DNA of 64,000 nt from a virus (IMGVR_UViG_3300028832_000140:3153-67152); one strand, 5' to 3'. Positions 2,931 through 33,302 are shown, numbered from the stretch's first letter. Numbers and translations are program-made. Notes: a model not told the origin generated them from the sequence alone.

Positions 2931-3596
2931 ATGGAACCGACAGACGAACTTTACAGGCAATGCGAGGGCTTGCTTGCGTCACGCGTCGAGGACGTGCTTT
3001 CACGGAAACCTTACCTCGACAGGGACGAGCTCAAGTCAATCGCCAACTCTATCTTCTGCGACGCTTGCAGGAGTTTCGACGGCTCGAAGGGAGCCAAGTT
3101 CACCACATACCTCTACAAGAAGCTATCGAACCTCGAAGAGGAATCGAGGCGCGTGCTCGTACCGGACGGAAGCGGAGGATACACGGTCGCGCTGAATGTA
3201 GACGACTTTGGCGAAGACAATGAAGGCAACATGTTTAAGGTCCGGGTAGACAAAAGCGTAATCCTTCCCGCGTCCATAGCCTACGCCGAGCGCATGGCCG
3301 ACGACGGTCATTCGGAGCTGTTCAGCCATTGCGACAAGGTGCTGTCTGCCGATTCCGCGAAGGTAGTGGGCGACATCGTGGACGGCGAACTCGACCCGAA
3401 ATACAGGAAGGGAACGGCGGTACACGACAGGCGGTACTCCGGAAACTGCGTCATGAACGCTAGGCGCCTCTGGCTACGCAGGTACAGGAACATGGGCTGG
3501 ACCGTTGAACAGTGCGAGCGGACGCTAAAGGAAGTCCGGAGCATAGTCAATCAATACAGCCGTGGGCGACTGCCGTGCAGGCTGGTCCGCGTATAA
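2931..3596 (+). CDS. Phage sigma-factor-like transcription regulator (candidate late activator)
   Basis: ELKSIANSIFCDACRSFDGSKGAKFTTYLY resembles sigma70 region 2; first gene of the late block. Confidence 0.65.
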   Translation: MEPTDELYRQCEGLLASRVEDVLSRKPYLDRDELKSIANSIFCDACRSFDGSKGAKFTTYLYKKLSNLEEESRRVLVPDGSGGYTVALNVDDFGEDNEGNMFKVRVDKSVILPASIAYAERMADDGHSELFSHCDKVLSADSAKVVGDIVDGELDPKYRKGTAVHDRRYSGNCVMNARRLWLRRYRNMGWTVEQCERTLKEVRSIVNQYSRGRLPCRLVRV

Positions 3597-5424: not shown

Positions 5425-6699
5425 ATGCGGACAATCAATGTAGACATCAAGCCCGAACCATACCAGCGGTCCTTCTTCACGCAGAGGGAGGAACTTTCCG
5501 GCATATACGCAGGTCGAGGCATAGGCAAGTCGTGGATCATGCACCACAAGTCGAGCATCGCAGTCGCAAGCGGCGAGACAGTGCTATACCTCACGCCTAC
5601 CAACTCCCTTCTTCGAAAGCAGATGATGCCGAGAATGATTTCCATATTGCGTGGGTGGGGTCTTGACGCCATTTGGAACAAGTCGGACGAGACAATCACG
5701 ATTGCCGGTTCGGCAGGAATAATTTATGGAGCGTCATACCGCAACTATGACGAAGTTTGCCGTGGCGTAGACGGAGTGTCCACAGTATGCTACGACGAGC
5801 TTGCCAAGGCCGATGACTTGCAGATGCTCTTTGCGGCCGTCGCACCGACGATGCGAAACGCGAAGTTCCCTCCGCAGACCATTTACGCGACAACGCCGCG
5901 CAAGGGTAGCGAATGCGACCGTATGGTATTAAAGGGGGAACTTGGGCGCGTCGTGACGGGCGCCACCATCGACGACAATACCCACGTGACCGAGGCCGAG
6001 CGCGAGAACATGAAGCGGTTCCTGAAGGGCGACCTGTACCGCCAGGAAATCCAGGGGCAGATTCTCTCGGGCGACATCGAGAGCGCCGTATTCACATCGG
6101 ACTGCTTCGGGCGAATGTGGCAGCCGCCTAGGGGCCACGCCTCGATGGGCGTAGACTGCGCCGGTCACGGGCGAGACTACAACGTGTTCTACGTGATCGA
6201 CGACGTGCATATCCTCGAAAAGGTCAAGGTGCAGAAGGCCGACTCCTTCGAGATGAACAACATTGCCCGCGGACTCATACAGAAGTACAAGGTACGCCAG
6301 GTGACGGTGGACGGCACCGGCGGCTACGGGCAGGCCATATACGACTTCCTGAAGCTGGACCCGTCTCTACAGGTCTACTTCACGAACTTCGGGCAGGCCG
6401 CGGAAGACCACGAGCACTTCGCCAACGCCCGCGCCGAGATGTTCTTCCGTCTCGCCGAGGCGATGAAGCTGGAATTCCGTCTCGACGACGCGGAGACCGA
6501 GGAGGAGCTTCGCATCATCAGTTCGGACGTAAACGTTTCGGGAAAGTGCCTGCTGGTGAGCAAGGATGTCATCAAGAAGGTGCTCCAGCGCTCCCCGGAC
6601 AGCTCGGACGCCCTCGCGCTCGCGTACTACAACAGGCGCAAGATGTCCACGCTCGACGTGGCCGTGAACAGCATGTACAAGAAGATGCGCATGTTCTAG
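5425..6699 (+). CDS. terL: Terminase large subunit
   Basis: Walker A GRGIGKS, Walker B VCYDE, nuclease MGVDCAGHGRDY and SPDSSDALAL. Confidence 0.92.
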   Translation: MRTINVDIKPEPYQRSFFTQREELSGIYAGRGIGKSWIMHHKSSIAVASGETVLYLTPTNSLLRKQMMPRMISILRGWGLDAIWNKSDETITIAGSAGIIYGASYRNYDEVCRGVDGVSTVCYDELAKADDLQMLFAAVAPTMRNAKFPPQTIYATTPRKGSECDRMVLKGELGRVVTGATIDDNTHVTEAERENMKRFLKGDLYRQEIQGQILSGDIESAVFTSDCFGRMWQPPRGHASMGVDCAGHGRDYNVFYVIDDVHILEKVKVQKADSFEMNNIARGLIQKYKVRQVTVDGTGGYGQAIYDFLKLDPSLQVYFTNFGQAAEDHEHFANARAEMFFRLAEAMKLEFRLDDAETEEELRIISSDVNVSGKCLLVSKDVIKKVLQRSPDSSDALALAYYNRRKMSTLDVAVNSMYKKMRMF

Positions 6700-7011: not shown

Positions 7012-8496
7012 ATGGAATACAATCTGCTAGACCGCATCATGGACGAGGACTACTACGGACCCGGCAGTGCCGAGTTCCTGCTGCGAGGCATGAGCCCCGA
7101 AGGGCAGAAACGGTTCATCAAGGACTTGTCGAAAAGCCTTTCTAGAAAACTTGTTCCAGGTGCAGGGAAGGAAACCCGAGCCGAGCGCAAGAAGTTTGCG
7201 CAAGAGCTGGAATCTTCCATCAACCGCATGCCGGAGGATTTGCAGGACTCGTGGCTTATTTCTGCTGGAAGACCGGGTACAATTTCGCTTGACAACGGAT
7301 TCAATGCGATGTTCGAGGCGAGTTCTTACAATCCGACATCAAATAAGATTGTAATAAAGGACAACGTCAACGACAACCGCCTTAAATCGGCCTTGCACGA
7401 AGTTGCCCATCACTCCGATTTCAATATGGCGAAGAAGCGCCCCTACGACGGAAAGAAAGTCCGTATGAGCGCAGCTGCGTTCGCAAATCTCGGCGACGAC
7501 ATCAGAAATGATGTGATTACGGGTAAGACCGACAACTATTATGACCTGATAACAGGCCGTGAAAAACTCGAAGACGACGATGCCGAAATGTTCGACCCGA
7601 GACAGCAGCTTCTTGACAATATATACGAGTTTACATACGACACGAAGGCTAACAAGGACTATCGTTCTGGCTTGAAAGAACAAGTGGACCGTTCCCTGAT
7701 GGACTGGCATTCGCTTAACGAAAAACTCCCGTTTGACATAGCCCACGGCAACGAATACCGGGAAAGACGGCAGCTCGAAGGGTTGAGACAGTACATGGGA
7801 GACCCTAGAGTATATCCGTTTGAAGTGGCCGGTGATGCAAGACGCGGAATCAAAGACGCCGAAAAGGCTATAGAGTTTTCAAAGCAGTACCCGATTGCCG
7901 TGGAAGGCCCGTCCAACATCTACGAGATTCTCGGAACAGAGGGCGGTGCTGAATGGATGCGCGATAACATGAAGGATTCCTATGCGAAAATGGAACGCCT
8001 TGCAAAAGAAGACATCCGAAAGTTACGTTACGTTCCTCGATCCGAAAAGTACGCCGACGAACTTGGCTTGGAACTCATAGCGAAGAACCGCGAAAGGGCG
8101 GCAAAGAGAAAACAGACCCTTCTTGACAGATACCGAGCCGATTTCATGACATTGCCCGAAGAAAAGCGAAACTACTACGAAAACGCGAAGCCCGGTGACG
8201 TGCTCTGGCTCAAGAGCCCGGAGTTTGAAGAAGGCCTGAACCAATACTATGTAATCAAGGGCGACCCGCATTACGAAGCAAGGGGTTCCAAGCTCTACAA
8301 GGTTCACGATGATTCTCCGCTGACAGTCGACAAGAACAAGAGGGGACGTTTCAAGAAAGTCTTAAAACCTATCGACCTGAACGAGCTCGCTCCCGATTTC
8401 GTTCCGACTGACAAGTTCGACATCGAGTTCCCGCAACACGATAGCAAGAAGGTACTTGAAGCGCTTGAACGCAGCCGAAAGCGCAGGGCTAAATAG
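7012..8496 (+). CDS. Zincin-like metallopeptidase effector (HExxH), candidate capsid cargo
   Basis: ALHEVAHHSD motif; paralog of 13194-14678; N-terminal NLLDR. Confidence 0.6.
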   Translation: MEYNLLDRIMDEDYYGPGSAEFLLRGMSPEGQKRFIKDLSKSLSRKLVPGAGKETRAERKKFAQELESSINRMPEDLQDSWLISAGRPGTISLDNGFNAMFEASSYNPTSNKIVIKDNVNDNRLKSALHEVAHHSDFNMAKKRPYDGKKVRMSAAAFANLGDDIRNDVITGKTDNYYDLITGREKLEDDDAEMFDPRQQLLDNIYEFTYDTKANKDYRSGLKEQVDRSLMDWHSLNEKLPFDIAHGNEYRERRQLEGLRQYMGDPRVYPFEVAGDARRGIKDAEKAIEFSKQYPIAVEGPSNIYEILGTEGGAEWMRDNMKDSYAKMERLAKEDIRKLRYVPRSEKYADELGLELIAKNRERAAKRKQTLLDRYRADFMTLPEEKRNYYENAKPGDVLWLKSPEFEEGLNQYYVIKGDPHYEARGSKLYKVHDDSPLTVDKNKRGRFKKVLKPIDLNELAPDFVPTDKFDIEFPQHDSKKVLEALERSRKRRAK

Positions 8497-8551
8497 CCTC
8501 CGTGTTTATTCATAGGGCGTACAACCAAGATTTTTAACACAGGAGTATAAA

Positions 8552-8722
8552 ATGACCGAAGAACTCGCACAGCTTTTCGAAGACCTCAAGGGCCGTTACG
8601 GCATCGCCGACGAAGACATGGCCGTGATTACGCAGGCCGTGGACACCACGGTTGCCGAAGCCGTCGCTGAAGCCACGGGCGAAGGCGTCCCGGCTGGCGA
8701 AGGCGAAGATTGGGAGGGCTAG
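8552..8722 (+). CDS. Small acidic protein, 56 aa (not in ORF track)
   Basis: AGGAG RBS, MTEELAQLFEDLKGRYG...GEDWEG*. Confidence 0.7.
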   Translation: MTEELAQLFEDLKGRYGIADEDMAVITQAVDTTVAEAVAEATGEGVPAGEGEDWEG

Positions 8723-8726
8723 TCCC

Positions 8727-9425
8727 ATGGCAGGTACATTCCTTGACCGCGTGATGCGCTACGGCGGCGTACAGAGACGCCCGCAGGCCGCACCGCGCGA
8801 CAACGGCGTCAACGTCCAGCGCCGCGGTTTCGTGCCGCAGGGCGGACGCATTCCGCAGGGATACGGACAGCAACGACAGGTGCAGCCGCAACCGCAGCCG
8901 GTGCAGCGCCAGTACACGCCCGAAGAAATCTACGCATACCGCATGGAGATGGCGAAGCGCGAATACGCACAGCGAGCCTACGAGGCCGAGATGCAGCGAC
9001 GCGCCGCATACGGCGTCCCGCAGGTGGGCGATGGCGCAGCAGCGCGACCGTACGAGTTCCTGATGGGCGAGGCCGACCGACTCGGCGCAAGCTCCGGCGC
9101 GATGCCCGCCGGTGGCGCACAGGTTCCGCAGGGCTACGCACAGCAGCCCGAACCGGAAGAACAGCCGCTTACCGAGGAGGAAGAGGCCCAGCTCCGAATC
9201 CGCCTGATGTACAACGACTACACCCGCGAATCCGCGGAACGCGGTGCACAGCCCGCCAGCTTCGAGGAGTTCGTGAACGCGCTCGTGGCACGTTCCCAGG
9301 CGCAGCAACAGCAGGCCGCTGAACCGCAAGCCGTGCAACAGCCGGAAGCGCAGCCCGCGGAAGTTCCGCAGGTAGCCGCCGCCGAGCCTACGGCCCCGAT
9401 GCCGCAGGGTGTCCAGACGGCATAG
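8727..9425 (+). CDS. Gln/Pro/Ala-rich protein, candidate capsid cargo
   Basis: Likely start ATG 8727 (MAGTFLDRVM); low complexity. Confidence 0.65.
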   Translation: MAGTFLDRVMRYGGVQRRPQAAPRDNGVNVQRRGFVPQGGRIPQGYGQQRQVQPQPQPVQRQYTPEEIYAYRMEMAKREYAQRAYEAEMQRRAAYGVPQVGDGAAARPYEFLMGEADRLGASSGAMPAGGAQVPQGYAQQPEPEEQPLTEEEEAQLRIRLMYNDYTRESAERGAQPASFEEFVNALVARSQAQQQQAAEPQAVQQPEAQPAEVPQVAAAEPTAPMPQGVQTA

Positions 9426-9530
9426 AATTTCCATTGTTCCTTGGGTTAATTGAAAAAACGGGATCCGGGGCTAACCACGCCCCGGTTTCTCGTTTTTATT
9501 CATAGTGCGATATAACATAAGGAGTAACCA

Positions 9531-10130
9531 ATGCCCACACCGAAGAAAGTAAACTTGCTCGACAAGATGTATCGAGCTTACAAGGACGCAAACCCGAACA
9601 CATCAAATGTTACAGACAGAATAAACACGATTTATCGCGAAGGTGGCTATAAAGGCCGCGTTGATCGTTACCTGTCTAACAAGTCCGTAAACGGGGCTAA
9701 AAAGGCAAAGCGCGAAATCGCACGGTTCCATGAAGACATTTTCCCGAATGAACTTGAAATATACTTTGACGAAAATCCGCGCTTACACAAGGACAATGAT
9801 TTCGGACGTGCTTTCGATGCAGTCGAGTCTCGCGTAGGTTATCTTGGTTCAAACGAAAAAGCGGCAAAGGAACGAATCGCTCGTGACTGGTTCGAAAAGA
9901 TTGATGGCGGAGAAAAACCTAGTGCTGGATGGAAAACAGAACTCAATGTAACGCCCATGCAGAGCGACCCGTACAGACTAAACGAACTTTCTAATAATGA
10001 CCTTTTCTACTTGTACGAAAGGACTGGACGTCCCGAATACGGACTTGAAATAAGCCGCCGTCATAACAAGATGGTGGAAGAAAACAAGAAGAATTTCCCG
10101 TACTTGTTTGGCGAACAGACCGAAAAGTAA
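9531..10130 (+). CDS. Hypothetical protein, candidate capsid cargo
   Basis: AAGGAG RBS; N-terminal NLLDK; AT-richer than flanks. Confidence 0.7.
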   Translation: MPTPKKVNLLDKMYRAYKDANPNTSNVTDRINTIYREGGYKGRVDRYLSNKSVNGAKKAKREIARFHEDIFPNELEIYFDENPRLHKDNDFGRAFDAVESRVGYLGSNEKAAKERIARDWFEKIDGGEKPSAGWKTELNVTPMQSDPYRLNELSNNDLFYLYERTGRPEYGLEISRRHNKMVEENKKNFPYLFGEQTEK

Positions 10131-10266
10131 TTACGGCGTTTACCTCCTCATAGCGCAATAGGCCCCTTTTCGGGGGCCTTCTTTTATTCATACCACGGAA
10201 GGCCGAGAACGAGCCTTTACTCACAACTTCAACGCAGCGCGTGGCGTACACGCGAGGAGATAGGTA

Positions 10267-11502
10267 ATGCCTAACGAAGCAATGAATCCGAACATGGACA
10301 TTGATTACATCCTGGCGTCCTACAAGGACGACGAGCCCGAAACGCAGACGGAACCCGGTGCATCCGAACCGGCTCCCGAAACGCAGACGGCTACGGCAGG
10401 TGACGGGGGCCACCCGGAACAGGCCGCAGGAGCTGAACCCGCAAAACAGGAACCCGCGAAAGCAGATGGGCCGCAGAATGACGCGAACGCCCCGGCGGGA
10501 CAACAGGCAGCGGGCGCCGAGCCGGACAAAGACAACAATGGCGGTGAACCCGCCAACGGTGACGGCGGTGTGGCTGGTACTGAAGGCAACGCAGGCGCGG
10601 CGTCGGAACCCGCGAAGGCGAAACCCAAGGTGCCGCGCAGGAATCCTCTTTCACGACTCGAGAAGGCCGAGTATTCCACCCGCAAGTGGAAGCAGAAGTA
10701 CCGCGAAATGCGCGAGAAGCGCGACGCCCTCCAGGCCGAACTAGAGAAGTACAGCAGGATCGACCCTACGCAGTTTCGCGACCCCGCAGACAGGGAGCGC
10801 TTCCTAGCCTGGCAGGCACGTACCGAGCAGAAGCTCAACGGCATGGACGAGGACCTGGAAGACATCGCGAACAGACAGTACGAACGCGAGTACGAATCCA
10901 AGGTGGAGGCATTCTACCCGGACGAGGACGCGCGTCACGCATTCGACGCACTTGACGAACACTACGGTTCCGTACTGGACGCCACGTGCCAGAAACTCGA
11001 CCCGGACAACATCATCCTTGACTTCTTGCAGAACTCCCCGTACGAGCCGGTCTTGAGGAACATCATCTACAAGAACGGCCCGTTGCAGGAACAGCTCTTC
11101 GCGAGGTTCGGCAGCCGCGCAATCGCCAACGCGACACGCGTAAACCTGCTGAACCAGCTCGAAAGCCAGGTGAAGGCGTTCTACGCGAGGGAACAGGGCG
11201 CACAGCCCGAACAGCAGGCGGCACCACGCACGGCACAGAACGGCGCGGCCACGCAGCAGAGACGGTTCACGCTCCCCCCGAAGAAGGACGCCCCCGCAGC
11301 CACGGCTACTGCACCGGTCGCAACGCAACCGGCAGTTCCCGCACAGGCCGTGGCACCGGCTCCCGCTCCAGCTCCCGCTCCGGCACAGCCGACGATGAGC
11401 AGCGGCGTGACGGGCTCGCTCACCCGAGGAAACGAGGGTGGCGGCGCAATCGACGAGAGCGCGGAAGCCAACGCACTCTTCAGGAAGATGTTCGGGTCGT
11501 AA
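10267..11502 (+). CDS. Capsid scaffolding protein
   Basis: Acidic/Pro-Ala N-terminus, coiled-coil middle, immediately upstream of capsid gene. Confidence 0.7.
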   Translation: MPNEAMNPNMDIDYILASYKDDEPETQTEPGASEPAPETQTATAGDGGHPEQAAGAEPAKQEPAKADGPQNDANAPAGQQAAGAEPDKDNNGGEPANGDGGVAGTEGNAGAASEPAKAKPKVPRRNPLSRLEKAEYSTRKWKQKYREMREKRDALQAELEKYSRIDPTQFRDPADRERFLAWQARTEQKLNGMDEDLEDIANRQYEREYESKVEAFYPDEDARHAFDALDEHYGSVLDATCQKLDPDNIILDFLQNSPYEPVLRNIIYKNGPLQEQLFARFGSRAIANATRVNLLNQLESQVKAFYAREQGAQPEQQAAPRTAQNGAATQQRRFTLPPKKDAPAATATAPVATQPAVPAQAVAPAPAPAPAPAQPTMSSGVTGSLTRGNEGGGAIDESAEANALFRKMFGS

Positions 11503-11562
11503 AGACAGACAAAACCCACACTTCAAATCGTGACGCTTTCATAGCGTCCAAAGGATGACATC

Positions 11563-12765
11563 ATGGCAAATTCCACCGTTCAGAACAAGAAGGTGATTTC
11601 CCTCGCCCTCGGCGCAGTCGCCGACGGCGCTTACCTCTATGCTGGTGCCGACCGCGCCATTGCCGCTGAAATGCAGGGCAAGGACAACGGCGACATCATC
11701 TACTACAAGACCACCAATCTCGGCCAGGCCGAAATCTCCGACGTGTCCATGGGCAACCCGGCCAACACCGGCCTCGCCTCCCTCGACATCGCGTCCGCAA
11801 CCCCGGTCAAGCACCGCCAGGTTCCGGTGAAGATCAAGGACGCCCGCGTGATGTACAACGTGAAGGCAATCGAAAAGCAGATTACCTCCCTCGGCAAGGA
11901 CATCGCCATGGGCAAGATCGGCCAGAAGCTCGCCAAGAAGGCCGTCAAGAACGTAATCGCCGAAGACATCCTCACCATCGGCAACATCTTCGTCGGCAAC
12001 GACTTCGCCGCCTTCCAGAAGGCCGGCGCATTCCTCAAGGCCTACGTCGATGGCACCCTCTACGGCTTCATGGACTGGAACGTCTGGGGCGACTTGACCG
12101 CCAAGGGTCAGCAGGCCGTGCCGTGCGCACTCGCCGAACCCCGCTTCGGCCGCAACCTCCGCGGTTCCTGGTCCCTCATCGACCAGCTCCGCACCATCCC
12201 GGACATCCCGCAGTTCAAGATCGGTGATGTCGCTTCCGCCAAGGTGAAGGCCTCCGTCGCCACCTCCGCAAGCACCGTCGCCCTCACCCTGACCGCAGGC
12301 GATTCTCCGCTCGCAGTCGGTGACAAGGTTGTCGTGGCCGTTCCGGGCATCAACGCCCTCGACGTGAACGACAACGACACCGGCGTCGCCAACAGCTTCG
12401 TCGTGACCCTCGAAGCCTCCGTCGCCGCTTCCGCAACCACGGACGTGACCGTGACCTTCGACCCGCAGCTCGTCGTCATCCCGGCATCCATCGCCGCCAA
12501 CGCCTCCGTCGAAGTCAAGGGTGCCGCCGGTACTTACGGCGCAACCATCATTCGTGCAGAAGGCGCACAGGCCTTCGGTACGATGAACCAGTGCGACTGC
12601 GAAGGCGCCAAGTACGAAAAGAGCTCCATCGACGGCCTGACCGTGCACGCCAACTCCGGCGAGAACATCGGCGCCCTGTCTACCGACAGCCGCTACGACA
12701 TGATTCTCTGCTCGAAGCTCGTGGAACCGCGTGCCGCCGCCTTGGTGCTCTACAAGATCGCCTAA
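11563..12765 (+). CDS. Major capsid protein (P22 coat-like)
   Basis: 400 aa, strongest C-ending codon bias in the window, follows scaffold, strong terminator downstream. Confidence 0.8.
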   Translation: MANSTVQNKKVISLALGAVADGAYLYAGADRAIAAEMQGKDNGDIIYYKTTNLGQAEISDVSMGNPANTGLASLDIASATPVKHRQVPVKIKDARVMYNVKAIEKQITSLGKDIAMGKIGQKLAKKAVKNVIAEDILTIGNIFVGNDFAAFQKAGAFLKAYVDGTLYGFMDWNVWGDLTAKGQQAVPCALAEPRFGRNLRGSWSLIDQLRTIPDIPQFKIGDVASAKVKASVATSASTVALTLTAGDSPLAVGDKVVVAVPGINALDVNDNDTGVANSFVVTLEASVAASATTDVTVTFDPQLVVIPASIAANASVEVKGAAGTYGATIIRAEGAQAFGTMNQCDCEGAKYEKSSIDGLTVHANSGENIGALSTDSRYDMILCSKLVEPRAAALVLYKIA

Positions 12766-12811
12766 CCACGGCGATACAAGGAATTCTAGGTTGGCATAAC
12801 CTATTATCCCC

Positions 12812-12854
12812 AAAAAAAAGGCCCCGTCACCTAACCGTGGCGGGGTCCTTTTTT
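12812..12854. terminator. Bidirectional intrinsic terminator
   Basis: A8-ggccccgtcac-loop-gtggcggggtcc-T6. Confidence 0.8.
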
Positions 12855-12876
12855 ATATGGTCGGCGAAATTATCGT

Positions 12877-13050
12877 TTACTTGTATCTTGAGTCCGGCTT
12901 CTGCGCGAGGTATTCTTTAAGTAGGTAGCGAATGAACGAACCCGTGTCGTCTGTAATAGTAGTTGGAACACCACTGTTTATGGCTTCGATTTTGGCTCGC
13001 TCCAGCATAGTAACGTCAAGCGTTATACAGAACTTAGTTTCCAATGTCAT
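12877..13050 (-). CDS. Small ribbon-helix-helix-like protein, 57 aa (not in ORF track)
   Basis: MTLETKFCITLDVTMLERAKIEA...SFIRYLLKEYL; upstream TTTACT-17-TATATT on the minus strand. Confidence 0.6.
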   Translation of the reverse strand: MTLETKFCITLDVTMLERAKIEAINSGVPTTITDDTGSFIRYLLKEYLAQKPDSRYK

Positions 13051-13193
13051 AGAGAATTACATCCTGCAACATTATTTTTGAATATTTATGTGAAATATAA
13101 ATAGTAAATGTTTTAAAGTAAGTAGAACTAAAAAAAATGATTGGTTTATTCATACCATGGAAGTTTAACATTTTCACGGACTTTTTTTTGTAT

Positions 13194-14678
13194 ATGGCCG
13201 AAAGAAAAAATTTCTTGGATCGGGAAAAGGAGAGACAGGACGGCGACAGCGTCCTGCCATATTCCATAGCACTCATTCCGGGCTTGACGGCCCTGGAACA
13301 GGACGCGCTCGTGAAGGACATCGCGGAAGGGGTGGTAAAGAAAAGTGTTGAATCACGAAACGCGAATACGTATAGTGAAAAATCGATTGATGAAATTAAC
13401 AAATACATATCGGATAGGAAAGCCGCTGACATACTAGAACATGCTATACAGCGAATGCCTGAACCTCTACGAGACTCTTGGCTGATGTCGTATGTTGATG
13501 GTTTGCCTCCGTATTTTTACGATGACGCATTTAAATCTGAACGAGGAATACCTGATAACGCTACAGGATATTACGCTCCAGACGAGTACAGAGTGTATAT
13601 AAGCAACAAACATTTTATTTCTGATCCAAGAATAGCTATTCATGAAAATGTTCATAAGACTAATCATGACTTGAATCTAAGTCATCCTTTCTATGAAGGT
13701 GTCGAAATAGAAAATGTTCCTGACAGAATGGTTGGTATTGGACTCGGCAAGACATTAAGCGGAGAATTTCCGAAAATTCTTAAAACACCTAAAGGAATTA
13801 TGAATAGAAGTGAGTTTATTGGTGAAATAAACAAAATGGTGGGTAATAAAGATGCAAACAAACTTGCAAGAAGGTTCTATGAAAATAGTCTTTTAAATAG
13901 TGGTATTTATGAATCAGCAAAACAAGCGTATTATCCCAAAAACGGGTCTAAAACCGATATAAGGGACTGGAATGATTTTATATGGTATAATGATAAATTT
14001 ATAGATGATGTTTTTAATCTTTCACCTGATTATGTAGATAAGAATAACGAAAACCATCTTTCAGAAAATATAACAGGAGGCCATCCAAACTCCTATAAAG
14101 AAGAAAAGGAAAAAATTGCTGACTATCAACAGTATTACTTAAAAAATAACGGTTTTGCCGGAAGGGATTTTGTTGAAGAAGGACTTCCAAAGTATGCAGC
14201 TCAATCAACAGAATCAACAGCACATCTTGCAGAACTGATGTCTACAAGGGGTGGCGAAGAAACAGTAAAACTCCTTTATCCGAAGACGTACAACCGCATG
14301 ATGAATGAATACCGCAATGATCCACGTCGTTCTTGGCCTAAAGAGTCTTTAATACCATGGCAGAGGTACTCTCACGAAAGTAATTCTAACGTGTACGGAC
14401 AGCGCGGCAGCGAGCCTGAAGCATTCAACCCGAACAATGAACGCCACTATGTACGTGTACCCGACCCTTATGGAGGATGGCACTACGGCGACGATTACAC
14501 CGATGTAAACCTTGTAGCCGCACGTCGTGGTAAGAACTACGTCGAATACCGCGACCTTGACGGAAACTGGAAACGTTTTTACCCTAACGAACTGAAATAT
14601 GTCAAGGAAGGTAAGATTAACAGAAATAAGAAGTGGGCTTTGGAACTAGTCAAGAAACTCCGTAATGGAGTGAAGTAG
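13194..14678 (+). CDS. Zincin-like metallopeptidase effector (HExxH), candidate capsid cargo
   Basis: GYY..AIHENVH; STAHLAE..YPKTY; paralog of 7012-8496; start MAERKNFLDR at 13194. Confidence 0.6.
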   Translation: MAERKNFLDREKERQDGDSVLPYSIALIPGLTALEQDALVKDIAEGVVKKSVESRNANTYSEKSIDEINKYISDRKAADILEHAIQRMPEPLRDSWLMSYVDGLPPYFYDDAFKSERGIPDNATGYYAPDEYRVYISNKHFISDPRIAIHENVHKTNHDLNLSHPFYEGVEIENVPDRMVGIGLGKTLSGEFPKILKTPKGIMNRSEFIGEINKMVGNKDANKLARRFYENSLLNSGIYESAKQAYYPKNGSKTDIRDWNDFIWYNDKFIDDVFNLSPDYVDKNNENHLSENITGGHPNSYKEEKEKIADYQQYYLKNNGFAGRDFVEEGLPKYAAQSTESTAHLAELMSTRGGEETVKLLYPKTYNRMMNEYRNDPRRSWPKESLIPWQRYSHESNSNVYGQRGSEPEAFNPNNERHYVRVPDPYGGWHYGDDYTDVNLVAARRGKNYVEYRDLDGNWKRFYPNELKYVKEGKINRNKKWALELVKKLRNGVK

Positions 14679-14783
14679 TTTAATACTTCTTTATTCATTG
14701 CCCGACATATTTATCCCTCCTGATACGAGGCCCTTTTATTCATAGGTCGTAACGAACCTATCGGATAGAAGGGCTTTTTTGTC

Positions 14784-16694
14784 ATGGACGGACTTTTACA
14801 GGCTGAAAACAACAACGGATTCGCGCCAATTCCCGAAGAAGAGGAAACCGACATCATCGAGAAATGCCGCAAGTTCCTGAAGCGCGCAAGCGACAGGTGG
14901 TGCTCCGACATCGACGACCAGGAACTCGCGCTGGAGGTGGCGGGAGGCAACTTCTGGGGCGTGGGCGACAACAAGAAGCGTTGGGCCATTCTAGACAAGG
15001 ACGGCAAGGACCTCATACCGACCATTCCCTACAACAACATTTCCCCGCAGGTGAACGCCATCGCGTCGCCGTTCTCCCGCTCGCCGTTCCACATCAACGT
15101 GGTTGACAAGACCGAGCAGACGGGCGGCAAGGTGCTACAGGACGCCATCGTGAAGATAGAGTCCTCCAACAACGCCAAGAACGTCTACCAGCGTGCATTC
15201 ACCCGAGGCGTCACTTGCGCGGCGGGCTACATCGTGGTAGGCACCAGCCTAGCCGACGGCAAGGTGGTCCCGTCCGTGGAGTTCATAGCCGACCAGAAGC
15301 AGGTGGCGATAGACCCCGACTGTATCGACCCGTCCGGCTGCGACGCCGAGGAAGGCGCAATCATCAGCTACATATCCGTCACGAAGGCGAAGCGCGAATA
15401 CGGAGACGACATTGTACCGATGGACTACCCGTCCGGACAGCCGCGCATGTCTTTCGCCGGAATCACCGCATGGCAGGACAAGACCGACAAGGTACAGCTC
15501 GTCCGCTACTTCCGCAAGGTGACGAAGGAATTTCCTGACCCGCAGAACGGAGTGACAGTAAAGAAGACGTTTGTCCGTATGCACACGATATGCGGCGAGC
15601 GCGAGGTGCGCGAACCGGTTGACCTCATGACCGACATCATCCCGATTGTCCGTTTCGCGGGCTACACCGACTACGATTCCGAATACGGGCAGGTGTACAC
15701 GGGATACGTACAGAAGATGATGCCGCAGATCGAGCAGATGAGCCTCGCTCTCACCATGCAGGCGCTACGCATGCGCCGCTGTTCGAACGTCCGCGGCGTC
15801 GTGGGCAAGTCCGCCACAGAAGGGTGCGAGGAATACTTCACGGACTTCGAGAAGGGCTCCGCTATGTGGCTCACGTGGAACGACAAGGCTGGCGCAACTC
15901 CTCCGCAACTCGTCAACGATTCCTTCAACACGGCCGACATTACCGCCGCCCTCCAGGAAGGGCGCCAGACGATGCAGGAATGCACCGGCGTGAACCTCGC
16001 CGGTCTCGATACCACCCAGCGCACGGCCTACGAGATAATGCAACAGCAGATAAACTCGGAATCCAACGTGCAGGAACTCTACATCCACGCCGAGGCCGCA
16101 TGTCACGCCCTTGGCCGTATCATGCTCGGCATCCTGAACAACGGCGACGTGCCGGAGTTCACCCTCGAAGGCGGTCCTAACGTAATCACCGCCAAGATGA
16201 AGACCCGTTCCGAAATCCAGGCAATCGCGGAAATGGCGGACCCTGCGCACAAGGAACTCTGCGCCATCCGTCTAGCCGAGACAATCGACAGCGACGTTGC
16301 CAAGGACCTCGCGCAGGACCTGAAGGCGAACACGGAACTGAAGCTGACCGAGGGCCAGGACGTCGGAACGATGATGAACGTGGCCGAGAAGTTGAAGAAA
16401 CAGCTCGACGAGGCGATGGAGAAGCTGGAACAGGCACAGGCCGAAAAGCAGGAACTTGAACGCCGCAACTACGAGCTCGAGCTCGCGCAGCAGAACATGA
16501 AGAGCCAGCAGGTCTTGCAGAACATCCAGTTCCAGCAGCAGATGAAGCTCCGCGAGGCGGAACTTGCAGCCAAGAACGCCACGGCCGCCGCGAAGATAGC
16601 GGCAGACGAACGGAAGCTCGCCATCGACGCGCAGAAGGCCGTGGACGCGAACCGCGAACAGACCGCCCGGATCATCGCAAACAGGGGGTACTAG
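14784..16694 (+). CDS. Portal protein (P22-like)
   Basis: 636 aa, P22-portal-like size and pattern with long C-terminal coiled coil. Confidence 0.8.
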   Translation: MDGLLQAENNNGFAPIPEEEETDIIEKCRKFLKRASDRWCSDIDDQELALEVAGGNFWGVGDNKKRWAILDKDGKDLIPTIPYNNISPQVNAIASPFSRSPFHINVVDKTEQTGGKVLQDAIVKIESSNNAKNVYQRAFTRGVTCAAGYIVVGTSLADGKVVPSVEFIADQKQVAIDPDCIDPSGCDAEEGAIISYISVTKAKREYGDDIVPMDYPSGQPRMSFAGITAWQDKTDKVQLVRYFRKVTKEFPDPQNGVTVKKTFVRMHTICGEREVREPVDLMTDIIPIVRFAGYTDYDSEYGQVYTGYVQKMMPQIEQMSLALTMQALRMRRCSNVRGVVGKSATEGCEEYFTDFEKGSAMWLTWNDKAGATPPQLVNDSFNTADITAALQEGRQTMQECTGVNLAGLDTTQRTAYEIMQQQINSESNVQELYIHAEAACHALGRIMLGILNNGDVPEFTLEGGPNVITAKMKTRSEIQAIAEMADPAHKELCAIRLAETIDSDVAKDLAQDLKANTELKLTEGQDVGTMMNVAEKLKKQLDEAMEKLEQAQAEKQELERRNYELELAQQNMKSQQVLQNIQFQQQMKLREAELAAKNATAAAKIAADERKLAIDAQKAVDANREQTARIIANRGY

Positions 16695-16695
16695 C

Positions 16696-17208
16696 ATGCC
16701 GAAGGTTCCGAAGACTTTCCTTGATAAAATGGAAAAGGTCGTTCGCCGTTACCACGCCACTACGGACGAGCCGTTGCGCGGGATCCTTTCGCAGGGTTCC
16801 ATCAAGACAACCATTGGCAAGCATAACGTGTACGAGGCCGACCTCCAGCACAAGAAAAAGAATCCCGACGGGACTTTCGTCTACGTGGAAGAAACCCGCC
16901 CGATTTTCACCAGCAGGAGACGCGGAGAATGGGATATGGGGCCGGAAACGAAGACCCTCGTGCTCGAAATTCCCGAAAGCGTCTACAAGGGCATGAAACG
17001 GACCGACCTGAATCCCGACTATGCTCCAGGCGTGCAGAAGCGCGGACTCGGTTTGCCCGAAAAGGTTTACTCGGTGGACCGTGGCGGCAGTGCAGACTTC
17101 TTCATGGAAGACCTGCCGCTTGATTACGCCGTGGGCGGCTACATAGGGAAATCGCGAAAGATGGTCCCGCTGGATTCGTTGCGGCACCTTCTCGAACTGG
17201 ACAAGTAA
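16696..17208 (+). CDS. Putative ADP-ribosyltransferase-fold protein, candidate cargo
   Basis: RYHATT..LRGILSQGSIK, IFTS, VLEI pattern of HYE-like ARTs; N-terminal TFLDK. Confidence 0.5.
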   Translation: MPKVPKTFLDKMEKVVRRYHATTDEPLRGILSQGSIKTTIGKHNVYEADLQHKKKNPDGTFVYVEETRPIFTSRRRGEWDMGPETKTLVLEIPESVYKGMKRTDLNPDYAPGVQKRGLGLPEKVYSVDRGGSADFFMEDLPLDYAVGGYIGKSRKMVPLDSLRHLLELDK

Positions 17209-17324
17209 CAAGGCTTACGGCCCCGCCTCCCGGCCATAAAGGGTTGGCGCGACCGTGGCGGGGGCCGGATTCATTCCGGCTCCCGTTTTATTCATAGGTG
17301 GATAATTACGAGGAATTCTGACCG

Positions 17325-20368: not shown

Positions 20369-20413
20369 ACTGTTTTATTCATAGGTGAAAAAAGAATACA
20401 AGGAGATTTGACA

Positions 20414-21082
20414 ATGGTAGGAGCCATAGCAGGTGCAGTGGGCGGTCTCGCCTCCGCCGCGATAGGCGCATACGGCGCAGCGCAGGAACGCAAGGCGGCA
20501 AACCGCCGCAGGGCGCAGGCCAACCAGCAGATTTCGGAATGGCAGAAGCAGGCCGAACAGATCCTCGCCGAATCCGAGGCCAACCGCACGCAACTCTCGG
20601 ACGCGAATTCCGTGAGCCGTTACAAGGCGCTCCGCGATTCCTACGACCCGTCGGCGTATGTCGTCGAGCCGGAAAAGTTCGACAAGAGTGCCTACAGCGT
20701 GGAAGACTACCTGAACCCGAACCGCGACGCCATCCTCGAAGACATCGCGAGGGCGTCGCAGCACACCGCCGCGGCGGCAGGTCTAGGCCATTCCTCCGGC
20801 GCGGTAGAGGCAATCAACAAGTCCATCCTCGAAAAGGACGAGGAACTACTCAAGGAAGCCCGCCAGGAAATGAAGGACGAGCGTTCCTTCGACTACGGCA
20901 TGTACACGGACTACATCAACCAGCAGCAGAAGAAGCTCGACTCCATGCAGCAGGGCTACAAGGACCAGCTTGAACTTCTCCGCGGCGACATCCAGTTCGA
21001 CCAGCAGAATACGGACGCAGTAATTCAGAACCGACTCGCTCTCGGCAACTCCATAGCGCAGAGCCGCGCACAGCTCGTATAA
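20414..21082 (+). CDS. DNA ejection (pilot) protein, gp7-like
   Basis: MVGAIAGAVGGLASAAIGAYG Gly/Ala N-terminus then coiled coil. Confidence 0.6.
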   Translation: MVGAIAGAVGGLASAAIGAYGAAQERKAANRRRAQANQQISEWQKQAEQILAESEANRTQLSDANSVSRYKALRDSYDPSAYVVEPEKFDKSAYSVEDYLNPNRDAILEDIARASQHTAAAAGLGHSSGAVEAINKSILEKDEELLKEARQEMKDERSFDYGMYTDYINQQQKKLDSMQQGYKDQLELLRGDIQFDQQNTDAVIQNRLALGNSIAQSRAQLV

Positions 21083-21100
21083 CGGGAGGATTTTGACACA

Positions 21101-21949
21101 ATGGCTACACCAATGAATTTTCAGTCGCTTAATTACGGCGGCATAGCCCAGCAGGAGCAGGACGCCCGCAGGCGCTATTACGACAGCTTGAGTTCCATAG
21201 GCGGCGTCATCAAGGACACCGGCAAGGAATTCGAAGACTATCTCGCCCGAAAGAAGGCCGAGGAAGACGAAAAGCGCAAGTGGGACAACATGATTGCCCA
21301 GCAGGAATACCAGAAGGAACAGGACAGGCTTAACCGCGAACACACCGAGGAACGCGAGGCCATCGAAGACGCCCGTGTATTGCGTGATTGGAAGCTCAAG
21401 CAGGAAGAACTCCGCAAGAAAACCTACAAGAATATGAACGACGCAGCCGCACTCGAAAAGTACCGCGAAGGCTTGCAGAAGTCCTACACGCCCGAGTTCC
21501 TAGCGAAGTACGGCCCGACCGCGCAGGCCGACTACAACACGGCGCTTACCGCACCGACGCTTGCAGAAGCCGTAGCCGCAGGCCGCAACCTCGGTCAGGG
21601 TATCTATCAGCAGGATATGATGAACTTCCAGCGCGAACAGGCGCAGAACGCCGACAGCAAGGATTCCGAGTACAAAAAGCAGCTCGCCATCAAGAACGCC
21701 GTGCAGTCCGGCCTGTTCAAGAACGGAATCGACTTGACGGGAACGCGCCTTCCGAAGACGAAGGCCGAGGCGCAGGCGCAGATTGGACTTATCGACTCGT
21801 ATCTCGGTAACGATTTCCTCGGAGGTATCGACACTTTCGATGGTACTGCCGGTACGGGCGAACTCGCGTTCAAGCTGCAATACCTGAAGGAATTGCTCTC
21901 GAAAGTCGGCACTCCGAAGAAAAAGAAATGGGAGAAGAAACCGTTATAA
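21101..21949 (+). CDS. Putative DNA ejection protein
   Basis: Helical, Gln/Glu-rich, follows pilot gene. Confidence 0.5.
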   Translation: MATPMNFQSLNYGGIAQQEQDARRRYYDSLSSIGGVIKDTGKEFEDYLARKKAEEDEKRKWDNMIAQQEYQKEQDRLNREHTEEREAIEDARVLRDWKLKQEELRKKTYKNMNDAAALEKYREGLQKSYTPEFLAKYGPTAQADYNTALTAPTLAEAVAAGRNLGQGIYQQDMMNFQREQAQNADSKDSEYKKQLAIKNAVQSGLFKNGIDLTGTRLPKTKAEAQAQIGLIDSYLGNDFLGGIDTFDGTAGTGELAFKLQYLKELLSKVGTPKKKKWEKKPL

Positions 21950-22033
21950 AAGAACCTTGTTCTTTTTTGCAACGGGGCCAGCCATAGCGGCTGGCTTTCG
22001 TTTTATTCATAGGGGGAAATAAAGAGGTTATGA

Positions 22034-23683
22034 ATGGCTGAAAGTTACCTGCAAAAGGCTACGCAGATTTACAACGGCTTCAATGCCGAATCTTCGAAAA
22101 AATGGCTCCGCAAGAACGGCCTTACGGAACTCGCTAAGATGTTGCTCGACGACATGGCTGACGCCAGGAGCGAGGAAGATTTCAAGAAGGCCGAATACCA
22201 GTTCAAGAACCGGATCGTGGTTCCTTTCTTCAAGGAATCCGTCTATCCTCTCGGTGAAAAGGCCGTGAAGGCGTTCGTCGCCGAGAACCCCGTCATCAAC
22301 GTGGCGCCTCCGAAATCCGTCGGCAGCTACGACGAACTGAAGAAGAACCAGGCGTTTGCAGACAGCAAGTATGCACGTCAAGTCAAGGATGATAAGGGTG
22401 AAACCCAAGTAAACATACCTCTCCTGCAAGTCGCGAACGACCCGAAGGAATTGAGCCTCGCGGCACTCCGTCTCGGCATCACCCCCGAAGACCTCCACGA
22501 CCACATCCTGAACGAATGGGACAAGAAGAAAAAGCGCGAATGGGTCGAAGCAGAAAAGGCCATGCGCAAGGCTATCGTCGACGGCGGAGAGATAAACGGA
22601 GTAAAGTTCCAAGGCAGAAAGGGTGTTCTCAAGGATTTTAACAAGAGCAAGTGGAGCGGTGTGCTGAAGACTGTCGCCCCCGAACTCTACGCCGGAATGC
22701 GCCGTGACATCGCCGAAGGAAAGGGAGAAGCCGGTAGCATAGCCGGTTGGCTCGGTGAACACAAGAAGGATGCCATCATCGACGCTGCACGAAATACCGC
22801 ACTCGCGATGACAGGATTTGCTGCGAGCCCATTGGCTACCGCAGGCGTAGTCGGTGCCACGGAGCTTTCTTCGCTCGCGGCAAGCGACCACTACGACATG
22901 AATACGCGTAACGTAGGCGCCGCTCTCGCGGGAGCGACTTTTGCAGGAACGGTGCCCATTCTTGTTACCCGTTATGCGGCTCCGTTGCTGAAGTCGGGAA
23001 GCAAGACCATAAGGAACTCCGCACGCGACATTCTTCGCAGGATTCGTAACGGCGAAGGCACGGCCGCGGAAGTCGAACAGAACGCCCTCAAGGAAGCCGT
23101 TGACGAGGCGGCGAAGGTCGTACGTTCACGAGTAGCAGGTAACGAGACCCTGACTTCGGATGACGTTCGGAACGCCGTAAATGCCGTGTACCAGAAGGTA
23201 ATCTCGTCGCCGAAGAACGCCTTCTCCGACGGGACGAGAATCACGCAGGCCGACATCGAAAAAGCCCTGCTTACCGAAGACGGCGTGAACAAAATCAAGG
23301 GATTCCTTTCTGCACCGAGCAAAAAGACGTGGGTGGAGTGGAACAAGATGTCCAATAACCCGGCGTATGGGTATGAACAGCGTATCGTATTGCAGGACGC
23401 GATGAAGCGTGCCGAAGAAATGTTCCCCGAGGCCGTCAAGGAAATCAAGTACATCAGCGGCAACGGCAAGGCGCTCAACAGCGTCATTGCAACCGGAGCA
23501 AGGGTCGTGAACACCGTAGGTTCCAAGGCTGAACCGATGGCCGCACGAAACGTCTACGAGGAAGGTCTTTCTTCCTACGAGGCGGACCACCCCGAACAGG
23601 TGGAAGCCTGGAAGCGCTACGGCATCCCGAGCTGGGACCCGCTCGCGGACGAGTTCAACGAGAAGTACGGGGAGGGCAAGTAA
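22034..23683 (+). CDS. Putative large DNA ejection protein
   Basis: 549 aa with Gly/Ala hydrophobic central segment. Confidence 0.5.
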   Translation: MAESYLQKATQIYNGFNAESSKKWLRKNGLTELAKMLLDDMADARSEEDFKKAEYQFKNRIVVPFFKESVYPLGEKAVKAFVAENPVINVAPPKSVGSYDELKKNQAFADSKYARQVKDDKGETQVNIPLLQVANDPKELSLAALRLGITPEDLHDHILNEWDKKKKREWVEAEKAMRKAIVDGGEINGVKFQGRKGVLKDFNKSKWSGVLKTVAPELYAGMRRDIAEGKGEAGSIAGWLGEHKKDAIIDAARNTALAMTGFAASPLATAGVVGATELSSLAASDHYDMNTRNVGAALAGATFAGTVPILVTRYAAPLLKSGSKTIRNSARDILRRIRNGEGTAAEVEQNALKEAVDEAAKVVRSRVAGNETLTSDDVRNAVNAVYQKVISSPKNAFSDGTRITQADIEKALLTEDGVNKIKGFLSAPSKKTWVEWNKMSNNPAYGYEQRIVLQDAMKRAEEMFPEAVKEIKYISGNGKALNSVIATGARVVNTVGSKAEPMAARNVYEEGLSSYEADHPEQVEAWKRYGIPSWDPLADEFNEKYGEGK

Positions 23684-26047: not shown

Positions 26048-26131
26048 AATACTTTGTTTGTGTCAAAATATGACATCTTGTCCCTCCAAAGTGTCTATGT
26101 TGTAATGTAGACGTACTGGGAGGTACAAGAC

Positions 26132-26659: not shown

Positions 26660-26709
26660 CCCGTCGCGGTTTTATTCATAGTGGGAAAATTAACGAGGAT
26701 TCCCACAAG

Positions 26710-28023: not shown

Positions 28024-28259
28024 GCCTCGAATCGGCAGTGAAGGCGGGGGTAGCCGTCAAGATGGGGACGGTGGAGAAAATCGTAGACGAGTCCGGCGAC
28101 GTTACGGAGTTGCCGTTCCCGGTAAACGTGATAATCGACGGTACCCAGAGCACCCCGTTCATCAACGTCATCAAGGCCTTGTGCCGTTACATAGAGAGTA
28201 ACCGCGAGGCCGTCGAAATCGGCAAGGAAACCTTAAAGAAGAATAATGGAGGCGAATGA
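28020..28259 (+). CDS. Hypothetical tail-region protein
   Basis: ATGA overlaps at both ends. Confidence 0.6.
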   Translation: MSLESAVKAGVAVKMGTVEKIVDESGDVTELPFPVNVIIDGTQSTPFINVIKALCRYIESNREAVEIGKETLKKNNGGE

Positions 28260-29806: not shown

Positions 29807-29824
29807 TGACAAGGAGAATCGCAA

Positions 29825-29998: not shown

Positions 29999-30015
29999 AC
30001 AAGGAGAATTGAACA

Positions 30016-31398: not shown

Positions 31399-31411
31399 CC
31401 TTTTTCAGCTT

Positions 31412-31435
31412 GGCGGCGGCCTCCGCGCCGTCGCC
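31412..31435 (+). promoter_or_regulatory. GC hairpin downstream of VR (DGR target-recognition element)
   Basis: ggcggcggc-ctccgc-gccgtcgcc, 13 nt after the target stop codon. Confidence 0.7.
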
Positions 31436-33296: not shown

Positions 33297-33302
33297 ACGA
33301 TT

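Follow-up and report, generated by a model that had tools for sequence, protein, structure and literature searches.

Five late genes in the head module of an uncultured phage encode proteins that begin with the same short peptide, [NT][FL]LD[RK]. This tag is under protein-level selection and is confined to the late head module, and comparison with related genomes indicates that the bodies of the putative cargo proteins are exchanged behind it. By analogy with the capsid-targeting sequence (CTS) of phage T4, we slightly favor the reading that the tag is a capsid-loading address of the T4 type in an unrelated lineage whose portal is of the P22 type. The phage comes from the cattle rumen; the window (the whole stretch of DNA that was analyzed) covers 64 kb of a 67-kb genome.

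Six-frame translation yields seven matches to the strict [NT][FL]LD[RK] pattern in the window and eight in the genome. Five of the seven lie three to seven residues past an ATG, all in long late head-module ORFs (genes A to E, Table 1), and each reads as the initial annotation had reported. The remaining two lie within gene A (at 8116) and in a short ORF (at 60006). The internal rate of the motif in real proteins predicts about 0.04 N-terminal matches, compared with the five observed. Shuffling of codon blocks produced on average 0.5 matches overall and 0.005 at N-termini, the latter figure being biased low because shuffling destroys ORFs. The paralogy of A and D reduces the number of independent tagged families in the window from five to four. 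The tag codons vary among the five genes (AAT/ACA/AAC/ACT; CTG/TTC/TTG; CTA/CTT/CTC/TTG; GAC/GAT; CGC/AAG/CGG/AAA) and are synonymously variable inside each family. Selection therefore acts on the protein, as had been proposed from the differing codons. The initial annotation had named an equal frequency at early-gene N-termini as evidence against its reading; no tag was found there, even with a very loose pattern, and none was found in the tail-fibre module (23687-35924).

Table 1. Tagged genes and neighboring head-module genes, with positions counted from the first nucleotide of the window.
Feature	Coordinates	Strand	Description
Terminase large subunit (TerL)	5425..6699	+	Pfam Terminase_6N/6C; phrog_2, E 9e-31
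Gene A	7012..8496	+	494 aa; tag NLLDR at residues 4-8 (nt 7021-7035); HExxH zincin-like body, basic C-terminal tail
Gene B	8727..9425	+	232 aa, Q/P-rich; tag TFLDR at residues 4-8 (nt 8736-8750)
Gene C	9531..10130	+	199 aa; tag NLLDK at residues 8-12 (nt 9552-9566)
Putative scaffolding protein	10267..11502	+	Assigned by position, composition and a family adjoining the capsid gene in relatives
Major capsid protein	11563..12765	+	Assigned via relatives, phrog_283
Gene D	13194..14678	+	494 aa; paralog of A, HExxH; tag NFLDR at residues 6-10 (nt 13209-13223)
Portal protein, P22 type	14784..16694	+	Pfam P22_portal, E 2e-28; phrog_156, E 9e-30
Gene E	16696..17208	+	170 aa; tag TFLDK at residues 7-11 (nt 16714-16728)
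Gene F	22034..23683	+	549 aa; loose variant SYLQK at residues 4-8

The tagged genes are interleaved with genes for terminase, scaffold, capsid and portal, and this part of the initial annotation holds, TerL and the portal being assigned by Pfam and PHROGs, the capsid protein via relatives and the scaffold by inference. Of 32 aligned relatives of the capsid protein, eight hit phrog_283 ('major head protein'), the best at E 5e-7. The putative scaffolding protein has no Pfam or PHROG match. Its gene lies directly upstream of the capsid gene, its ends are of low complexity around a charged helical middle, and its family adjoins the capsid gene in all portal relatives. A promoter-like box, TTTATTCAT, lies 30-50 nt upstream of genes C, D and F. 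GGAG-like sites are seen in front of A, B, C and E. The box of C, at 9495, is a late promoter-like box of its own, and that of D, at 13145, lies downstream of an alternative ATG at 13137. Together these putative signals support the tagged start codons.

Related genomes show what happens behind the tag. Across seven of them the tag heads at least 18 unrelated families: 23 tagged proteins sort into 18 BLAST families, which range from 74 to 549 aa and differ in composition. The description of the tagged proteins as otherwise mostly unrelated holds, with A and D as paralogs. Unrelated tagged proteins occupy the same three slots in the relatives (between TerL and the scaffold, between capsid and portal, and behind the portal), and differing slot occupants are seen in L001, L005, L006 and L008. 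Gene E starts 1 nt past the portal stop codon. In L001, whose portal is 96% identical, DNA homology continues through codon 12 of E, is lost, and returns after the stop codon, and the body behind the tag is an unrelated protein of 129 aa. The end of homology just behind the tag indicates that the body was swapped while the tag was retained. The slot of D holds in L005 an unrelated 549-aa protein starting MAVTNLLDRL, with DNA homology lost between 12945 and 14689. In the slot of C, L006 carries two unrelated tagged genes, which start MPIKPSKKMLPLDRIY and MPNIKKVLPLDRIY. The swappable character proposed for the tagged genes is borne out by these exchanges and by the recombination boundary just behind the tag, but it does not extend to the A/D family, which is conserved across the close and mid clades.

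The tag itself drifts with lineage. In L010, five or six genes have it as [TN]ILD[KRQ], and in L011 about five genes have it as phi-LD[EDW]. This coherent drift over all tagged genes of one genome implies a shared partner. Enrichment of the motif in relatives had been suggested as a check. At residues 2-15, the tripeptide phi-LD occurs 24 times against 4.2 expected in the close clade and 10 times against 1.4 in the mid clade. The enrichment is weak in distant relatives (portal 29-36% identical), with 35 against 21.7 in a set that includes redundant loci.

Genes A and D form one paralogous family (BLASTP E 2e-9) with HExxH in both members. Gene D is a low-GC cassette (GC 0.48 versus 0.55-0.60 in the flanks) between the capsid and portal genes. 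Down to 31% identity the best conserved block of the A family is the N-terminus, where MEYNLLDRI.DED.YG is near-invariant. H129 and E130 are invariant and H133 nearly so in 14 sequences including D, and HExxH is present in all but one of the A/D family members found in the loci of relatives. The AF2 model of A has a pLDDT of 84, with residues 1-21 below 50 and a short helix at residues 6-9. In this model the tag of A sits on a predicted disordered leader, detached from the confident body. The model resembles the anthrax LF and Pro-Pro endopeptidase (PPEP) zincins at modest VIA-align Z scores of 6.3-7.9 (1yqy_A, Z 7.9, 172 aligned, rmsd 4.5; 6fpc_A, Z 6.4; 9g0j_A, Z 6.3). These top rows are mutually coherent, yet Z stays under 8. 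A Foldseek search against PDB returned no match at E <= 0.001, and A and D have no sequence match in Pfam, PHROGs or PDB. The closest fold is a phage 'minor capsid protein' in BFVD (E 2.9e-5), followed by weaker matches to polyvalent and MuF-associated proteins (MuF-named rows, E 0.13-0.18). The 'two zincins' of the initial annotation keep their HExxH motif and a modest LF/PPEP fold match, but they are one paralogous family, and one lacking a Pfam match. The further idea of injected anti-host enzymes finds some backing only in this zincin-like fold and is otherwise mostly unsupported. Every genome of the close and mid clades has the A/D family, whereas other tagged genes vary, so A and D may be core assembly parts instead of cargo.

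The remaining tagged proteins are less easily placed. No family was detectable for B, C or any of the other tagged proteins outside A/D. The tag of B is kept in its orthologs, at a spacing of 3, 6 or 9 residues from Met1. The Q/P-rich B could be an assembly factor, as could the tagged proteins of only 74-111 aa, some of which contain the motif twice. Homologs of E keep [TN][FL]LD[KRN] while the residues upstream of the tag vary. For E there was no Pfam match and a PDB profile search was empty. Its 'ART-like' label in the initial annotation remains a candidate assignment: the AF2 model was unusable at a pLDDT of 32, and a single weak hint came from a language-model neighbor cluster named DarT/PARP (score 0.92, 143 shared features), a level that chance can produce.

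Gene F is probably an ejection or internal virion protein, as judged by its position. The genes before it are weakly T7_gp14-like (20408) and Hc3/nozzle-like (18830), and 20408-23683 forms a putative ejection-protein block. The looser SYLQK noted earlier is present in F and conserved as [NS]YLQK in close relatives. In the family at large (KYLDEA, KYAQEV) it resembles a family-specific N-terminal helix, which makes the membership of F in the tag system uncertain. Positional analogs in distant relatives start KILDELY, ETILDEL and LSLLDAAY.

The preferred reading would run as follows. The element x(2-9)-[NT]-[FL]-L-D-[RK]-phi would be a portable N-terminal address tag on proteins produced late, alongside the head proteins. 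Its probable structure is a short amphipathic helix carried by a flexible leader, with the tag as the capped first turn: N or T would be the N-cap, D at N3 would complete the capping box, and docking onto some part of the assembling procapsid would fall to the two hydrophobic residues. The scaffold, capsid and portal proteins are all candidate receptors. By analogy with T4 and P22 the docking partner would be the scaffolding protein, the alternatives being the inner capsid surface or the portal. Any protein behind the tag would be enclosed in the head and would exit at infection; both physical loading into the capsid and ejection into the host are inferred. A bolder version, which is conceivable but rather doubtful, holds that the helix-cap motif of 5-7 residues (N/T-phi-L-D-R/K-phi) is a general capsid-loading address that arose independently of the T4 CTS, in a podovirus-like lineage having a P22-type portal, and recruits more than a dozen fast-changing unrelated proteins to the scaffold or inner capsid, after which the self-tagged LF/PPEP-like zincins A and D would trim or activate the cargo.

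The motif could instead be mainly a processing site, a propeptide cut (for example after L-D) by the tagged zincins A and D to release or activate late proteins, with targeting secondary or absent. The universal retention of the A/D family in the close and mid clades, set against the variability of the other tagged genes, is consistent with such a role. The T4 CTS is also a cleavage substrate, and the T4 prohead protease is itself thought to be propeptide-targeted (PMC9026906). The phi-L-acidic pattern resembles the T4 cleavage logo L/I-x-E, and in some small proteins the motif recurs internally, but the internal TLLDR of A is not a conserved feature of its distant homologs. The invariant HExxH and the fold resemblance to LF and PPEP, which are site-specific endopeptidases, also fit, although A and D are called proteases from a motif and a Z score that is middling. 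An Asp at P1 in T4 blocks cleavage and not targeting (PMC9026906). No canonical prohead protease of the gp21 type was found by Pfam or PHROGs in the late genes scanned; a divergent protease or the A/D zincins are candidates for removing the tag. A cleavage site alone would leave the confinement of the motif to the head module unexplained, and a primarily proteolytic role is unlikely.

Tail fibres share N-terminal anchors, and tailspikes and decoration proteins exchange modules behind a conserved N-terminus. The tag might likewise be a common docking arm that anchors proteins elsewhere on the particle, as exterior decoration, head fibres, or portal-vertex or tail accessories. The tagged genes do flank the capsid and portal genes, and the fold of A matches proteins annotated 'minor capsid protein'. 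However, known anchors are folded domains, tens to hundreds of residues long, whereas the tag has 5-7 residues on a disordered leader. Among the tagged proteins are very small, highly charged ones that match no adhesin or Ig-like family, and the tail-fibre module is free of the tag. An anchoring role of this kind is quite unlikely. Short polar-hydrophobic-hydrophobic-basic N-terminal motifs can also serve as protease recognition signals, so that the tag might have no virion role and act instead in regulated degradation, in binding of a chaperone or host factor, or in co-assembly of late proteins in the infected cell. Its restriction to genes among those for capsid, scaffold and portal fits assembly better, and its variable spacing from Met1 disfavors an N-end-type signal; a function of this kind is very unlikely. 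Least probable, and only barely credible, is descent of all tagged genes from a single gene by duplication, with bodies that have since become unrecognizable and an N-terminus that is simply the slowest part to evolve. Duplication clearly occurs in the module, as A and D are true paralogs and the proteins L005 n86 and L006 n77 are homologs. Against a common origin stand the number of BLAST-unrelated families and their spread in length and composition, the breakpoint exactly behind the tag in the slot of E despite near-identical portals, and the coherent drift that implies a shared partner.

If the tag is a capsid-loading address, several known systems offer comparisons. Polyvalent proteins fused to MuF (SPP1 gp7) and MuF toxins are head-module products with enzymatic domains that vary, zincin-like metallopeptidases among them, and are thought to be capsid-borne. 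The tagged genes likewise lie in a head module, and the best viral match of the A model is a 'minor capsid protein' with weak polyvalent and MuF rows behind it. In contrast to the single fusion with a folded portal-binding domain, the address here would be a peptide of 5-7 residues on the products of separate genes, and A to E contain no MuF or head-morphogenesis (SPP1 gp7-like) domain and match no Pfam family at E <= 0.01. Encapsulin cargo peptides are mostly C-terminal and bind an HK97-type shell protein directly, in systems without portal, terminase or DNA. Here, too, a short terminal peptide is found on unrelated proteins encoded beside an HK97-type shell gene, but the tag is N-terminal and the capsid protein is only a candidate receptor. 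An encapsulin system was rejected, as TerL and a P22-type portal are present.

The closest parallel is T4, in which diverse internal proteins (IPI, IPII, IPIII and Alt) share only a 10-residue CTS that targets them to the scaffolding core (PMC3012670, PMC9026906), and the analogy drawn in the initial annotation is apt. In both systems a short N-terminal peptide is the sole common part of diverse proteins, it persists where the bodies change from one related phage to another, and the proteins are encoded and expressed with the head genes. Prohead loading and delivery with the DNA would also be shared (PMC3012670, PMC9026906). Unlike the myovirus T4, the present phage belongs to a lineage with a portal of the P22 type, and it has a separate scaffold and a genome of about 67 kb. 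The peptide also differs. It is centered on L-D-[RK] at a variable spacing from Met1, whereas the CTS is described as ending in Glu, and its invariant acidic residue is the Asp that at P1 blocks T4 processing (PMC9026906).

In phage P1, the first 30 residues of DarB are enough to load a reporter (PMC9024508), and DarA-Hdf pairs attach to the inner surface of the capsid (PMC12810830). P1 uses an N-terminal signal of fewer than 30 residues for head loading, its cargo being anti-defence proteins (PMC9024508, PMC12810830), but the Dar N-termini have no consensus (PMC9024508) whereas a clear one extends over many families here. Internal proteins of podoviruses (P22 gp7, gp16 and gp20, T7 gp14-16, and the cargo of crAss001) reside inside the head and leave it ahead of the DNA (PMC10172136, PMC13434306). 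The P22-type portal and the weakly T7_gp14-like gene recall these phages, although the tagged genes belong to the head module and are separate from the putative ejection-protein block. PMC10172136 and PMC13434306 describe no shared recruitment peptide for those ejection proteins, in contrast to the shared tag here. If the bolder version above is true, the tag would offer a defined way into the question of how podoviruses recruit their internal proteins.

Five late genes of the window, designated A to E, encode proteins that carry the same short peptide, [NT][FL]LD[RK], close to the N-terminus. The initial annotation had read this tag from the sequence, and translation confirmed all five N-termini exactly. 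Six-frame translation of the window gives seven strict matches to the motif, five of which lie 3-7 residues behind the ATG of a tagged gene; about 0.04 N-terminal matches are expected from the internal rate in real proteins, and shuffled genomes contain on average 0.5 strict matches in all. The codons of the tag differ among the five genes and vary synonymously within each family, so the constraint acts on the peptide rather than on DNA or RNA, which bears out the earlier claim of protein-level conservation. The tagged start of gene D is supported by a promoter-like box at 13145, since the alternative ATG, at 13137, lies upstream of this box. Gene A has a second, internal motif, [TKS][LIV]LDR in homologs of at least 50% identity and absent from the most distant ones, which may be due to chance or may be an internal processing or docking site.

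The virus record (67,152 bp) is complete according to CheckV, and the window covers 64 kb of it. Near-identical DNA is present in bovine gut metagenomes from more than 10 studies, and tblastn searches with the portal and gene A against 50,697 phage records returned no cultured-phage match. RNA runs contain only small shares of the window. Late genes occupy about 2.9-39 kb of the window, on the + strand. A TTTATTCAT box (mostly TTTATTCATAG), found in 15 copies between 3954 and 38212, all of them on the + strand and 30-50 nt ahead of late gene starts, probably serves as a late promoter specific to the phage. At its own N-terminus the scaffold family (homologs L010-L087) conserves a short helix onto which the portal or the tags might dock; its sequence is DIDYILASY in the close clade, but T-E-E-A-L-x-Y-L in distant ones. 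Both ends of the complete record (genome 1-40 and 67110-67152) show a C-run followed by GTTGT, which may reflect either a genuine terminal repeat or the short overlap that a circular assembly leaves at its termini.

Positions of the tagged genes and of other features in the window
Feature	Position	Strand	Basis or remark
Sigma-factor-like gene	2931-3596		phrog_351 (E 1.6e-8); head of late block
TerL	5425-6699	+	Terminase_6N/6C, phrog_2
Gene A	7012-8496	+	tagged
Internal TLLDR of gene A	8116-8130		residues 369-373
Gene B	8727-9425	+	tagged
Gene C	9531-10130	+	tagged
Scaffold-like gene	10267-11502	+	family adjoins capsid gene in all portal relatives
N-terminal helix of scaffold	10267-10330		
Capsid gene	11563-12765	+	relatives match phrog_283
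AT-rich spacer	12766-13193		428 nt
Gene D	13194-14678	+	tagged
P22-type portal	14784-16694	+	Pfam and PHROGs
Gene E	16696-17208	+	tagged
SU10-adaptor hint	17913	+	weak
Hc3/nozzle-like gene	18830	+	
T7_gp14 hint	20408	+	weak
Gene F	22034-23683		loose variant SYLQK; putative ejection or internal virion protein by position
Candidate diversity-generating retroelement	30016-33296		tail-fibre region; target, avd, TR and RT, from first reading of the sequence

The breadth of the tag was followed through the portal. A full HMMER search with the portal reached only 139 representative clusters; a narrower portal alignment seeded a locus search that yielded 80 viral loci, the wide one being too divergent to serve as a seed. 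In two loci whose portals are 58-62% identical the tag persists in drifted form: five or six genes of one (L010), the E homolog among them, carry [TN]ILD[KRQ] followed by a hydrophobic residue and V, and about five genes of the other (L011), with the A homolog among them, carry a hydrophobic residue followed by LD[EDW]. The reduced motif, a hydrophobic residue followed by LD at residues 2-15, occurs 24 times in the close clade against 4.2 expected and 10 times in the mid clade against 1.4, while the distant clade (29-36% portal identity) has only 35 against 21.7, and there the positional analog of gene F accounts for most occurrences. The N-terminus of F itself, [NS]YLQKA and elsewhere KYLDEA or KYAQEV, looks by sequence like a family-specific helix, and jackhmmer among the fetched loci found no homology between F and its positional analogs. 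L011 also has two paralogous genes of about 213 aa, one on each side of the portal gene (9224-9868 and 11894-12535), with a common N-terminus, ..SKQ.KALYEAALRRKG, that is different from the tag.

Within families the tag is the part that holds. Gene A has 13 homologs in a big protein collection, and their MEYNLLDRI.DED.YG block hardly changes even where overall identity falls to 31%. Four homologs of E keep [TN][FL]LD[KRN] while the preceding residues vary, and the B family keeps the tag while its distance from Met1 shifts from 3 to 6 to 9 residues. The bodies behind the tags are largely dark: neither genes A-F nor ten tagged proteins of relatives match a Pfam or PHROGs family, one sub-threshold GH99 row excepted, and profile searches of the PDB that started from alignments of E, A and the capsid protein gave no match. 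Charge and pI do not distinguish tagged from other late proteins. The AlphaFold2 model of A has a pLDDT of 84, with residues 1-21 below 50 and only a short helix at 6-9, which makes the tag a flexible leader in this predicted structure. The body has an invariant HExxH. In structural comparison it comes closest to anthrax lethal factor, in the catalytic domain (Z 7.9), and to Pro-Pro endopeptidases (Z 6.3-6.4), rows that are coherent but middling; a Foldseek search of the PDB was empty at E <= 0.001. The top viral model carries the annotation 'minor capsid protein' (E 2.9e-5), and polyvalent and MuF-associated proteins come next with weak rows. The model of E has a pLDDT of 32, and the idea that E is ART-like has one weak language-model neighbour as its basis.

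In related contigs the same slots, from TerL to the scaffold, from the capsid to the portal and behind the portal, are occupied by other proteins bearing the same tag. The capsid-portal slot of L005 holds an unrelated 549-aa protein that starts MAVTNLLDRL, the slot behind the portal of L001 holds an unrelated 129-aa protein that starts MPKVPKTLLDKM, and L006 has two unrelated proteins with LPLDRIY upstream of the scaffold. Small proteins of 77-101 aa are found in L005, L006 and L008; in two of them (L008:262-567, 101 aa, and L005:11714-11974, 86 aa) a second motif, GNLLDRFL or NPLDRM, stands about 25-45 residues further in, and two tags on one small protein could indicate an adaptor or competitor rather than cargo. 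The exchange is visible in the DNA. Compared with L001, whose portal is 96% identical, homology runs from 16600 to 16732, the 3' end of the portal gene through codon 12 of E, and is then gone until 17222, just past the E stop; compared with L005, it is gone from 12945 to 14689 in the capsid-portal slot. Gene D is a low-GC island (0.48). The AT-rich spacer between a terminator-like hairpin behind the capsid gene and the low-GC gene D resembles a scar left by an inserted cassette. In X12, a contig from another cattle sample, the end of the portal is joined to the region behind E (16687 to 17217) with 15 other letters between and E is absent; another contig of the same run covers E, which suggests that E is an accessory cassette in natural populations. 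Joints in contigs from other cattle samples hint at natural strains that lack E or differ in content at the C and D slots, but the hint is weak, given short sides and an 80% likeness cut-off.

The best-supported reading of these comparisons is that the tag acts as an address label that would dock late proteins onto the assembling procapsid through a putative receptor. N/T-x-x-D is the classic helix N-capping box, and we infer that it applies to the tag, which would form the capped first turn of an amphipathic helix presenting two hydrophobic residues. A complex prediction of the scaffold, the capsid protein and residues 1-30 of A gave ipSAE values of 0.02 and 0.21 against a mark of 0.32, which speaks neither for nor against binding. 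The tag was also considered as a mimic of the C-terminal helix of the scaffold (NALFRKMF) and rejected: the scaffold is without the Asp that is invariant in the tag, and clades differ in register.

Other explanations for a shared N-terminus are that the tagged genes are diverged paralogs, that the tag is a non-virion signal, that it anchors exterior or vertex accessories, or that it is purely a processing site. Common descent does account for A and D, which are paralogs (E 2e-9; HExxH in both), and thus the window holds four independent tagged families; with the tags trimmed, 23 tagged proteins from seven genomes fall into 18 BLAST families. A signal acting outside the virion is to be set beside the early genes of the window, none of which has an N-terminal tag, however loosely the pattern is drawn. 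Anchoring of exterior or vertex accessories would place tagged proteins on the particle but not in its interior, and the 'minor capsid protein' match of A is to be read both with this and with the address label. Cleavage of the tag is possible, the conserved and self-tagged zincin-like proteins A and D, whose family occurs in every close and mid-clade genome and is absent from distant ones, being the candidate protease. A scan of late genes with Pfam and PHROGs, however, found no canonical prohead protease, and Asp at P1 blocks processing in T4 (PMC9026906).

Little is understood of the way in which short-tailed phages bring internal or ejected proteins into the procapsid, and the tag gives a concrete handle on this step because the candidate cargo bears a motif that is very short and well defined. 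Fusion to a reporter allows a test with procapsid-like particles assembled from three genes, so that the rumen host need not be cultured. The tag also provides an annotation rule by which dark head-module genes become probable virion cargo, and it is a possible minimal signal for loading proteins into phage particles. Should the tagged zincin-like proteins process cargo, they would be a new type of head-associated protease. To our knowledge, there is no clear consensus loading signal outside the T-even phages. In T4, a 10-residue N-terminal capsid targeting sequence is all that diverse internal proteins have in common, and it targets the scaffolding core (PMC3012670, PMC9026906), the same logic as that of the tag. 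The tag likewise matches the N-terminal signal of DarB in P1, a phage in which a consensus signal was sought and not found (PMC9024508) and in which proteins of this kind can be located on the inner surface of the capsid (PMC12810830). T-even phages thus already embody the principle; the new element is that an uncultured lineage with a P22-type portal, unrelated to them, has a clear consensus tag, which is carried by many families and has visible cassette exchange behind it.
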